A stretch of 64,000 nucleotides of DNA, from positions 124,001-188,000 of the forward strand of contig KZ537974.1 of the NCBI GenBank assembly GCA_000934665.2. Direction: 5' to 3'. Made by a program: the position numbers and the translations under genes. Shown in pieces: positions 6,001-48,728 of the stretch; within the stretch, counting starts at the first letter, position 1; the number at the start of each line of letters is the position of its first letter. The notes below the pieces were generated by a model. The model saw only the letters and a list, made by a program, of their open reading frames with translations. It searched no databases and was not told the DNA's origin. The stretch is from Catajapyx aquilonaris. Lineage: Eukaryota.

Positions 6001-9000
6001 GAGCAAGTACATTTTTGTAAGGATCCATGCTGTCAACGTAATTGGAAAAATTCAGAAGTAATGAAGCAGAACTAAAGTTTTCGAATTTTTGATTATTTTT
6101 GTTATCTGAAAAGCTTCTGGGGTTCGCGTATTGAAAGCAAACTCTTGTTACTGTACTGTAATCTCACTTCGCATTGAACAGTCCTTTTTGAGAATTTTGG
6201 TCTCAAACACTTTGATTACAGTAACCGTCCTAAAAGAGTACTATGCATTGCATCTGTCCAAGCGAGCATAGTAAGCTATTTTCTCAGTTCTTTGACTGAA
6301 CATAACCTTGTCAGGACTGCTTCCATGAACAGCACCAAAACAACTTCAAACAAGACTGAAAAGATGCCGGAGGAACAAAGCGATACATTACAAACTAGGG
6401 CGCAAAAATAAAGTTTCTAAGATGGCAAATCCTACCTGGCTGGGTTTATAGACCAGAAAGCATCCGGCATGATTTCCAGTGGGAGTCTGATGCAGAAGGC
6501 TCAGAAAGGGAAAGAAAAGCCTCTCCTAACTTATTTTCTCGGTGCGCCCCATTTTTCTCCATTTCTTCATCTTGCCCTAGGAGGAAAAGAGAGGGTACGT
6601 GGCCCCGAGCCTCTGAGCGTGCTTTCAGAAGTTTAAAAAAAAAAATCGCCTCCAAAATGGGTGTTTCTGCAAATGTGAGGCTTATTCGCTCGTTATCATG
6701 ACCTCGATATCAAGGGTGCCAGACAAAAAATTGGGTAGAAAAACAAGCAGTGAATGCCCATTTCCTGGAGTCTGGAAATCTTGGCAGAATGTGCTGTTAT
6801 TTTTTGGTAGCTAACTAGGCCCACTTGAGAACAAAATTAGAACATAGTCGGTACAGGTGTTTGGCTTTAATTTTTCATAACGATTTTATGATACTCTGTT
6901 CATTACCGTACTGATGGTATTAAAGAAATTTAATCGTTATTCTATCGATCGCATTGTGAATATGTCGATGATTTTTGGATGACAATAGCAGGTCTGGCGA
7001 AGGAGTAGTCGACCCTGATTACACAGCAAATGTTTGAAGGCTATTGAAGCTATGAGGTTTTTTTTGCCTTTGCTTTTCAATAGGGCACTGGCCAAAAAAT
7101 ACAGTAAAAGGGAAATGTAGGTTGAAATATTCAGCAGGTTATTGGACAGGAGATAGACATATGTCAATTATTGCACGGAAATTAATACGCGAGTTGTGGG
7201 CCCGGGATGAAAATGTCAGTAACCGTATTGGAAAGAGGCATTTGCTTGCATTTGTTCGTTAAGTTGCGGTTGGCTTTACTTGCAAAATGAGCTGCCAATT
7301 GGAGAATGAGAATCATATACGAGTGTGTGGATTTAGCTGCCCTGCCGGTGTCATTTTTGGATGAAGCAGTGAACTATACTGTGCATGTTGATGACCTGTA
7401 AACAATTAGTCACTATCAATGGACTCTTCTACACTCTCTTGAGCCCGTCAACTGCAATCATAAATTGCCTTTGACACTTGATCCCTTCATTCGCTGGGTT
7501 GTAGGAATTTAATTTATGGCTCGCAACAACCACCATGAAAAATGCGCTATCAATAGCCCAACTTAGCATTAATGAACCCTCTCCCAGGTACGAACTATTG
7601 TGCAAGAGACATAAATCAAAGTCATATGTGAAACGGTTCCAGATTACTGCATATGGGGTCGCACTTTGTCGCCAACGAGAACTGGGTCAGTCTGCATAAG
7701 CAGACACATACTGTAGTTGGCATTCCTGAAATTAGCTGAATTATGCAGTATTGTAAACGACCTGCTCGGCTTGTGGGGCTTAGGCGAGATGGGGGTGGGG
7801 GCTGGGGCTGGAATTCCGGCGTTGCTTTTGACAGACCGCCTGTCATAACGAACATGCTAATCAATACGTGCGCAGTTACATTTCCACATGTATGCCCATT
7901 TAGTTGCATTTAAATTGACCGTAAACAGGGCACACGCTCACCTTTTGTGTGGTCTAAGGTTCATTTGGTAAGATAATCCCAAACTGACCCTGCCCAATTC
8001 TGGAGGCTAATTAGAGGCCAGATGCCCTGCATTTGCATTCCCATTGTGCCCTATAATTGCAGCAGGAAGCGTCTTCCTACCGCAGTGGTTATAACGGCCT
8101 ACTATACAGGACCCAGACTACGCTTAAAACAAGCCTCGACCTCCAAGTCCATTTTCACATCGTAAAATGTAGAAAGGGCAGGCAAAAATTAGCTAAATAT
8201 TCTGACGGCCTAGTGACACACTAATCTGAACTCTGGCGGCAGCTTTGTTTACTAAACCAAACCCTGGTGGCCAATTTCCGCACTAATCCCACCTCTGGCG
8301 GGCAAACTCCCCACTAAAAACCCAATTCTGCCTTTTGAAAGTCTGACACAAAAAGTAGTGTATGTTCACAATTTATGTGGCTAAAAAAAGTCTGGAGTTG
8401 CTGAGTGCGATAAAGCATAGGATGTGTGACGCATAAAATGAGGCACGTAGTTATCGGATAGGAAGACGCAGGGCTTGGCAGAAATTATCGGTTGTGCGGG
8501 CAGAGGGTTGGGTGGCAAAAAGCCGATGCAAAGCAGATAGGCGACTGGATTTATAGCCCGTTAGCACACACGGCTTGCAAATCGTTTCGCCAAGCCAAAT
8601 TCCTAATCGGAGCCTGCAGGAAGAGAGAACGAGAGAGAGAGAAGCCGAAGGAGATTTATGGGCTAGGATTTCGCGGAGGAGCCTGGAGAATTGGGTTTCT
8701 ACAGGGTTACGGACCTGGTCAAGGTCAATTCCGGGCCTTATTTGTTTGTTGCGCATGACTAGGGAGTGAATTTTCCAAGGGGCTGCCTTTGGTTTTGGTA
8801 AAGGCGTCTGCAAGGTCGGAACAGTGTGCGGTCGCTTTGTGCTTTCGACATACGTAGCTTAGTGGTCTAAACTAGTGTTGCTGTCAGTTATATCGGGGGG
8901 GGGGGGGGNGGGGCTTATTCAGTAAAGCTGCATTCTAGGAAATTGTTAACCGATTATAGACCAGTACTGCGTAGTTTGGACCACATTCAATTACGAGCAT

Positions 9001-46459: not shown

Positions 46460-46503
46460 NNNNNNNNNNNNNNNNNNNNNNNNNNNNNNNNNNNNNNNNN
46501 NNN
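46460..46503. other. Assembly gap (44 N) after a poly-G run
   Basis: N run read directly; lies in intron A-B1. Confidence 0.98.
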
Positions 46504-47606: not shown

Positions 47607-47771
47607 TATGAGCTTCGCCTGGTGGCATCGGACAACCTGAATGAGAACTTCACCACAGTTGTGATCCACGTGAAAGACGTGAATGACAATCCGCCAGTCT
47701 TCGACCGGCCTACATACGAGACACAGATCACCGAAGAGGATGACCGCAACCTGCCCAAGAGGGTCCTCCAG
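47607..47771 (+). CDS. CadN: CadN alternative exon B1 (exon-13-like; YELRLVASDNLNENF...DVNDNPPVF...KRVLQ, 55 aa)
   Basis: Acceptor ttcctctgtcag|; weak donor CAG|gtcact; 165 nt, phase 0-0; DxNDNxP inter-repeat linker. Confidence 0.92.
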
Positions 47772-47844
47772 GTCACTCGGATTTGATGGGTCAAATCGCT
47801 GACCTGTTGGAGGAATAAGCCAGCTGATGGCATCTTCCTTCAAC
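47764..47844 (+). promoter_or_regulatory. Candidate splicing-regulatory RNA hairpins over the exon B1 donor
   Basis: CAGGTCA/TGACCTG, GATTTGA/TCAAATC and TCCTC/GAGGA nest around the donor; an adjacent competing stem GTTGGAGGAA/TTCCTTCAAC follows. Function is inferred. Confidence 0.5.
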
Positions 47845-47985
47845 TGGACATGACCCTACTCTCTATGTGTTGTGTTGTGCTTTTATGTTGTGCATGCTTT
47901 TTTTTTATACTTATGTTTCAGGTATTTGCACGGCTAATCCCGCTTGATTTATTCTCGTTTTTTTGCCATTTTTGTTTTTTTATAG

Positions 47986-48150
47986 TATAACCTGACCCTA
48001 GTCGCTTCCGACAGCCTGAACGAAAACGAGACCACTATTATCATTTACGTGAACGACGTGAATGACATGCCGCCTGTTTTTAACCAATCCTTGTACACGA
48101 CCGAGATTGAGGAAGAGATTTCTGGTCCGTTTCGTCACAAGCTTTTGCAG
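47986..48150 (+). CDS. CadN: CadN alternative exon B2, paralogue of B1 (YNLTLVASDSLNENETTIIIYVNDVNDMPPVFNQSLYTTEIEEEISGPFRHKLLQ)
   Basis: Translated by hand; this frame is not in the ORF track. Acceptor tttttgtttttttatag|; donor CAG|gtatta; same 165 nt and phase 0-0 as B1; 30/55 identical residues ungapped; no stops. Confidence 0.9.
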
Positions 48151-48590
48151 GTATTATTGTTGTCACTGTACTTGGAGGAAAATTACTGCTATAGTAATTA
48201 AGGCAGATTCCATGTTAAAGTTATATAAGAGCAAAAGAATTATTTTTCCTCCATGTCTTCCTGGCCTATAGCTATGCTTTTATTTTGAAAACGTTAGTTG
48301 ACTGTTTTCCTTCCTTTTGCATGACACACGGCTCTGGAGACGGACTTTTCCTAAATCCTGACAATGTCAACACAAAGTAAGCCAGCAGTATCCTAGTAAA
48401 TGCGCTCCAGAGCCTATTTAACATTGATGACAAGTCGCATTTTCTTCGCAATCAGAGTGAAAGTCCTCTCAGATAAATGCGGCCATTTTTTCTTCCTCCT
48501 ACTCCTCCTCCTCTTTTTTTTATCTCTTCTCTCTCCAGAGATGGAAGCAATCTCTGTAAAAGCAGGCAGTTGACTGTCTTTTCTATGCAG

Positions 48591-48728
48591 GTGACTGCCA
48601 CCGATGGAGATAAGGACCGTCCTCAGAATATCGTCTACTTTCTGACGGGTCAAGGAATTGACCCCGAGAATCCGACCAATAGCAAGTTCGACATCAACAG
48701 AACCACCGGCGAAATCTACGTCCTCAAG
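48591..48728 (+). CDS. CadN: CadN exon C (VTATDGDKDRPQNIVYFLTGQG...TGEIYVLK)
   Basis: Acceptor cttttctatgcag|; donor AAG|gtatgt; 138 nt, phase 0-0; AxDxD motif. Confidence 0.94.

Follow-up and report, generated by a model that had tools for sequence, protein, structure and literature searches.

The N-cadherin locus and its mutually exclusive exon pair

The window analysed here is a stretch of 64 kb of Catajapyx aquilonaris DNA, whose + strand encodes N-cadherin from approximately 40.4 kb on. By protein comparison, the gene is an arthropod N-cadherin orthologue, with an overall identity of at most 85% for all 120 proteins compared. The preliminary description had labelled it CadN, and the label is correct insofar as the gene is an N-cadherin orthologue, but not in the sense of the Drosophila gene: the large exon shares 91% identity with Tribolium and several other insects and 86% with a D. 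mojavensis protein.

Alternative exon B1 (47607..47771, + strand, 165 nt) encodes part of a cadherin repeat; its reading frame is open, and it is bounded by a cag acceptor and a GT donor. It is ME-13a-like, with 87% identity to residues 1065-1119 of the Tribolium N-cadherin model P0002, where they form the first tandem copy. Alternative exon B2 (47986..48150, + strand, 165 nt, donor CAG/GTATTA) is ME-13b-like and shows 62% identity to the second tandem copy (residues 1120-1174) of the same model. P0002 thus carries a 13a-like and a 13b-like segment in tandem and is 55 residues longer than model P0003; it looks like a gene-model artefact that holds both exclusive exons, and several other models are alike. 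The next constitutive exon, exon-14-like, is located at 48591..48728 (+ strand); the match of a relative's contig stops at 48728, and the contig runs on into the following exon.

Judged from their position before the transmembrane exon pair and from Hsu et al. 2009 (PMC2655722), B1 and B2 are the central mutually exclusive pair ME-13a/13b, each of them being closer to its orthologue than to its paralogue, and the same exon pair is found in 12 other lineages. In that article, 13a is neural and 13b mesodermal in both Drosophila and Tribolium, low synonymous rates are reported around ME-13, and cis elements are inferred there with no structure being named. Since B1 and B2 are both 165 nt long, the reading frame cannot enforce the choice between them. 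To our knowledge, no mechanism has been described for the mutual exclusivity and tissue specificity of the N-cadherin exon pairs.

The donor of B1 is supported by RNA from a relative. One RNA contig in this relative's metatranscriptome, which shows 19 differences in 172 nt, extends from the upstream exon across B1 and into the next exon. Past the last base of B1, the contig matches the start of the next exon, with 19 of 21 loose letters in agreement when read by eye, and the joining of these two ends indicates that an equivalent donor and acceptor are used in the relative. This junction, together with the equal lengths of B1 and B2 and the CAG with which both exons end, places the B1 donor correctly. 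The first intron letters, GTCACT (47772-47777), nearly repeat the start of the next exon, GTGACT (48591-48596), and for this reason the spliced contig of the relative was aligned 6 nt into the intron.

Several further observations concern the locus as a whole. The B1-B2 intron contains tttcag/gtattt at 47917-47927, which resembles an acceptor directly followed by a donor. A run of 44 N (46460-46503) marks an assembly gap in the long intron approximately 1.1 kb upstream of B1, and single N or short N runs occur at 8909, 11259-61, 21787, and 29018. The sequencing runs recovered were the probable source sample (X1-X4), the metatranscriptome of the relative (X5), and a small run that lacks the stretch (X6); their contigs showed no polymorphism, included no RNA of the window's own species, and yielded no intron downstream of B1 for the relative. 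No relative was found in the prokaryote genome contigs scanned.

The weak donor of exon B1

The donor CAG/GTCACT (47769..47777, + strand) had been described as non-consensus, and the duplex energies agree. The predicted U1 duplex of this site amounts to -5.6 kcal/mol, the weakest of the 10 donors in the window; the donor of 18a follows at -5.7 kcal/mol, and the rest range from -6.8 to -11.1 kcal/mol. Only five contiguous U1 pairs are possible at CAG/GTCACT, which has a pyrimidine at position +3.

The same weakness is found in other arthropods. In 15 of 20 arthropod lineages, the window counted, the 13a donor carries a pyrimidine at +3, and approximately five U1 pairs are available to the 13a donors of nearly all sampled lineages. 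By comparison, position +3 of the 13b donors is a purine in 9 of 14 lineages (window counted), and the mean U1 duplex is -5.9 kcal/mol for the 19 other 13a donors versus -6.7 kcal/mol for 13 13b donors. The weak 13a donor is therefore an old feature, common to most of the arthropod lineages sampled. At so weak a site, any local structure should carry more weight.

A nested hairpin and its enclosing fold over the B1 donor

The preliminary description had drawn a nested hairpin across this donor, and all three of its stems are present in the window sequence: TCCTC (47764-68) pairs with GAGGA (47810-14), CAGGTCA (47769-75) with TGACCTG (47800-06), and GATTTGA (47780-86) with TCAAATC (47791-97), the last of these being capped by a TGGG loop. 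The 51-nt hairpin (47764..47814, + strand) contains the 19 Watson-Crick pairs that had been counted, as well as an internal loop with CUCG opposite GC. Donor positions -3 to +4, the nucleotides that bind U1, lie inside it, and their partner is 47800-06. The hairpin is unusually stable: its minimum free energy is -22.8 kcal/mol, with z -3.36 against dinucleotide shuffles, and 2 of 200 shuffles are as stable.

When the hairpin is folded with its flanks (121 nt), z is -2.95 and 1 of 200 shuffles is as stable. The segment 47758..47860 (103 nt, + strand) reaches -44.8 kcal/mol and z -4.15, with none of 200 shuffles as stable. According to the folding model, this segment is the best-defined folding unit, a larger three-way structure that encloses the donor. 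Six predicted helices (47760-65/47852-57, 47767-69/47846-48, 47770-75/47800-05, 47780-86/47791-97, 47806-15/47835-44, and 47819-22/47828-31, all on the + strand) make up its 36 pairs, of which 35 are Watson-Crick and one is G-U.

The wider fold keeps the middle and inner stems of the 51-nt hairpin, and donor positions -2 to +4 are still paired in it. The outer TCCTC/GAGGA stem is displaced: GGAGGAA takes the downstream UUCCUUCAAC as its partner, and the last 12 nucleotides of exon B1 pair with GGA and GACCCU farther downstream. A second hairpin (47806..47844, + strand), which appears in the folding of both the 121 nt and the 103 nt, rivals the outer stem for GGAGGA. Uninterrupted helices reach 7 bp at most, except in the second hairpin, where one of 10 bp occurs, and the 51-nt segment from 47800, which covers this second hairpin, is itself within the extreme 0.1% tail.

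The element was also compared with known and repeated structures. An Rfam search at E up to 1 returned two sub-threshold chance matches only, none of them on the hairpin, and no second copy of the element exists within the 64-kb window. A mirtron precursor was considered and rejected, as the hairpin is too short (35 nt from the donor to 47806). The arms AGGTCA (47770-47775) and TGACCT (47800-47805) are nuclear-receptor half-site words 24 nt apart; we know of no response element with this spacing. In addition, the 31 nt at 47777-47807 in the hairpin region are 74% complementary to 48645-48675 in the next exon, 837 nt downstream.

Stability and donor burial compared with chance

In terms of stability, the B1 donor stands apart from the other donors of the gene. 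After GC correction, 23 of 21,216 51-nt segments on the + strand are as extreme as the hairpin, and among 60-nt donor regions the z of B1 is -3.06, compared with -1.33 to +1.20 for the nine other donors of the gene. The region of the B2 donor is without unusual structure (z 0.11). On the other side of the account, approximately 20 comparably extreme hairpin clusters occur per strand in the 64-kb window, so that the landing of one of them on some donor is not very unlikely.

The burial of the donor itself gives a less distinct picture. Opening the 9-nt B1 donor costs 7.5-7.7 kcal/mol across three context sizes, and 16.5% of 400 random GT sites are as costly to open (7.5 kcal/mol). Among the 10 donors, the opening cost of B1 ranks highest in one context and behind 18a (7.6 kcal/mol) or ex19 (8.2 kcal/mol) in the others, and similar costs, 7.6 and 7.2 kcal/mol, were obtained for two further donors of the gene. 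The pairing of the donor region (-12..+6) with intron positions +10..+130 is not beyond chance, being matched by 11% of 300 shuffled introns (p 0.11), and the mean pairing probability of the donor does not discriminate between donors. Moreover, the antisense strand of the 103-nt unit folds nearly as well (-41.4 kcal/mol, z -4.03), which means that the sequence carries no strand-specific signal. Overall, the evidence for donor burial beyond chance is mixed.

The hairpin in other lineages

When metagenomes were scanned with the B1 peptide, 54 loci were obtained, of which approximately 19 are distinct lineages carrying the orthologous exon and its intron. No usable alignment beyond the donor was obtained for the introns of eight lineages; therefore, covariation is not scorable. 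The conservation of the pairing, which the preliminary description had proposed as a check, was assessed instead through a donor-pairing test in 19 lineages and did not hold: the mean z is -0.08, and 2 of 19 lineages fall below z -1.64.

A donor pairing of their own is found in only two other lineages, L004 (p 0.013, with z -1.61 for its 65-nt hairpin) and L025 (p 0.017), and donor pairing is absent in 16 of the 18 other lineages, which are metagenome-derived. When only the intron is shuffled, the window has z -2.79 and alone lies below -2, the others ranging from -1.73 to +1.69. When nine rows were placed on a tree from the three exons, L005 (81% identity) came out closest to the window, and L005 shows no donor pairing (p 0.98). 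Likewise, no donor pairing is present in L001, the well-supported sister of L004. A helix that the window and L004 seemed to share (exon AGGGUC with intron GACCCU) was dropped, since L001, the sister of L004, is without the helix and L004 itself is not the lineage closest to the window.

Because the hairpin does not recur among the lineages, it does not belong to the ancient machinery of the exon pair. Based on these sequences, it is most likely lineage-specific among the lineages compared.

This distribution bears on a possible neutral origin of the structure. Template switching during replication can give rise to hairpins, and a recent DNA-level event of this or a similar kind may have duplicated the donor region, together with adjoining sequence, in reverse complement. 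The result would be a hairpin without measurable splicing effect, with nuclear proteins and helicases keeping the donor available. Near-pure Watson-Crick pairing together with folding of the antisense strand is the expectation of an inverted duplication at the DNA level, and this is what is observed, with 35 of 36 pairs being Watson-Crick and the antisense strand folding almost equally. The roughly 20 comparable clusters in the window, the opening cost and donor pairing within the chance range, and the absence of the hairpin from 16 of the other 18 lineages, the nearest among them, also agree with such a neutral inverted repeat. What it does not readily accommodate is that two independent top-0.1% hairpins stand next to each other precisely where the gene has its weakest donor, and that the closing helix makes use of the last 12 exon nucleotides. 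Furthermore, the arms are imperfect (CUCG opposite GC), which speaks against a very recent single event, and a structure as stable as -45 kcal/mol would hardly leave the kinetics of a donor with only five U1 pairs unaffected. We regard a neutral repeat as the main rival reading, somewhat short of an even chance.

An editing substrate was also considered. In this reading, the hairpin would serve ADAR, and A47770 in the last codon (CAG) would undergo A-to-I editing, changing Gln to Arg just before the mutually exclusive exons. A47770 pairs with U47805; it is the sole paired exonic A, located at position -2, in a hairpin that spans the donor. The last codon encodes Arg or Lys in six other lineages (AGG in L001-L003, L004, and L024; AAG in L008), a pattern common at editing sites. 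ADAR, however, usually requires a duplex of approximately 20 bp, and the helix that holds A47770 is 6-7 bp long and flanked by loops, in a structure of 36 bp in total, which is short for this enzyme. The 5' neighbour of A47770 is a C, and the donor pairing is not conserved across lineages. As to precedent, a conserved structure ahead of the flip/flop exons holds the GluA2 R/G site, which is embedded in a donor (PMC3553983), and ME-13a is the neural form (PMC2655722). Taken together, editing appears highly improbable as the function of the hairpin.

Two side observations emerged from the lineage comparison. In L027, L028, and L029, no 13b exon is present between 13a (1501-1665) and the next exon (1789), and the 13a donor reads GTAATT; Hsu et al. 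2009 (PMC2655722) record the loss of exon 13b in the honeybee. In L022, the introns flanking 13b (approximately 300-330 and 660-690) are complementary over approximately 20 bp (z -3.5, with 0 of 60 shuffles as good), a predicted pairing that would loop out 13b in this lineage.

Pairing beyond the B1 donor

The same 9-mer, TTGGAGGAA, occurs at 47807-47815 (36 nt past the B1 donor) and at 48172-48180 (22 nt past the B2 donor). GGAGGAA after B1 (47809) and after B2 (48174) could act as selector-like elements that pair with UUCCUCC, with complementary TTCCTCC sites at 48246 and 48493, and the local hairpin would then be the 'off' state. In agreement with such long-range competing structures, a relative retains the block 48411-48590, and the intron following 13b contains GGAGGAA in three lineages out of 13, namely the window, L001, and L005. 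On the other hand, TTGGAGGAA is common in the window, with 10 copies versus 1.08 expected, in unrelated contexts, and the partner sites are ordinary pyrimidine tracts. The duplex between the two whole introns is no better than that of shuffles (z -0.69; whole-intron RNAduplex gives unrealistically long duplexes, and only z-scores were used), and the region past the B2 donor is unstructured and unalignable in the relative. A long-range selector arrangement is thus decidedly unlikely.

The intron after B2 has some features of its own. In the relative's contig, 48154-48410, the first 257 nt of this intron, are replaced by 193 unlike letters. The block 48411..48590 (+ strand), upstream of the next exon, is alignable in an unspliced contig of the relative (with 10 substitutions and 10 gaps across 48411-48617); these last 180 nt of the intron show about exon-like identity and include a long pyrimidine tract at 48484-48538. 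A perfect 10-bp inverted repeat, GGCTCTGGAG/CTCCAGAGCC, is located at 48330-48339/48405-48414, and the 106-nt stretch that holds it has z -2.63, with none of 200 shuffles as stable.

The 3' arm of the hairpin also contains CTGAC (47799-47803), which fits the branch consensus and is followed by approximately 125 nt of pyrimidine-rich sequence. If this were the branch site of B2, with the branch point at 47802, it would lie 30 nt from the B1 donor and would block B1-B2 splicing by steric exclusion. Exons 2 and 3 of alpha-tropomyosin are kept apart in this manner, through a distant branch point. Nevertheless, a perfect CTAAT is present 48 nt upstream of the B2 acceptor and is followed by a strong pyrimidine tract; this is an ordinary arrangement, 165 nt from the B1 donor, and it makes steric exclusion at B1 scarcely credible.

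A possible role of the structure in exon choice

Among the readings weighed, we tentatively prefer, at a little less than an even chance, the view that the B1 element acts in cis as a local, lineage-specific RNA fold and vies with U1 snRNP for a weak donor. The fold would form once 35 to 90 nt of the intron have been transcribed. The intron arm UGACCUG would then pair with donor positions -3 to +4 through 7 contiguous bp versus 5 for U1; as the better partner, it should slow or reduce U1 binding. If it forms in vivo in this way, the structure would lower or delay the commitment of the B1 donor and might change the B1:B2 ratio. The use of B1 would consequently depend on helicases or activators, and room would be left for B2.

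The interpretation of the preliminary description, that the structure tunes the choice between B1 and B2, is upheld with respect to a weak donor overlapped by a stable structure and fails with respect to conservation across the lineages tested. A part for the hairpin in selecting between the two exons is a plausible hypothesis. A more elaborate version of the proposal treats the 103-nt fold as an RNA switch, in which GGAGGA pairs with either the exon end or the downstream UUCCUUC and which, together with a 7-bp U1 mimic, would gate neural 13a versus mesodermal 13b N-cadherin, possibly coupled to Gln-to-Arg editing of the last codon; we consider it unlikely.

The sturdier result is the weak 13a donor in most arthropod lineages sampled, which suggests that regulation acts on the donor itself. 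In that case, local structure would be an accessory that lineages gain and lose. If the hairpin acts, it represents a simple and testable cis element at an exon used in neurons.

Comparison with known systems

As the preliminary description had supposed, the structure appears to be without prior description: in a search of openly available full-text articles, no paper on RNA structure at N-cadherin exons was found. The terms 'secondary structure' and 'stem' never occur in the text of Hsu et al. 2009 (PMC2655722), and three further papers that mention CadN (PMC9013439, PMC3303723, and PMC3245913) use it only as an example or discuss exonic motifs.

In the docking-site/selector systems of Dscam1, 14-3-3zeta, and Mhc, RNA pairing chooses among mutually exclusive exons; one docking site pairs over a long range with several selectors, the pairing activates the exon, and it is conserved with covariation. 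The pairings of Dscam1, 14-3-3zeta, and Mhc are thus long-range and activating, whereas the B1 structure is local and expected to be inhibitory.

Another likeness is offered by TSL2 of SMN2 exon 7, a stem over a weak donor that reduces U1 snRNP recruitment (PMC1802598). As predicted at B1, a stem formed where exon and intron meet hides a weak 5' splice site whose U1 duplex is short. The two differ in that TSL2 has been proven by mutation, U1 suppressors, and enzymatic probing (PMC1802598), whereas the B1 hairpin is predicted. They also differ in design: TSL2 is a mostly exonic stem of 8 bp, while the partner arm of the B1 donor is intronic and the hairpin lies inside a 103-nt three-way fold.

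Similarly, the stem at tau exon 10 restrains its donor, since destabilising this stem raises the availability of the donor to U1 (PMC2483273). In tau exon 10/intron 10 as in B1, both alternative exons, complementary sequences lie on either side of the exon-intron boundary. The tau stem is backed by disease mutations and species differences, and it controls a cassette exon, whereas B1 is a member of a mutually exclusive pair.

In its setting, the R/G hairpin of GluA2 (Gria2) also resembles B1, being an exon-intron structure over a donor, just before mutually exclusive exons, in a neuronal gene (PMC3553983). The GluA2 hairpin is, however, a highly conserved ADAR substrate (PMC3553983), whereas the helices at B1 are shorter and the structure is not conserved across the lineages tested. 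If it is real, the B1 hairpin joins the known donor-occluding stem-loops of the SMN2 TSL2 and tau exon 10 type.
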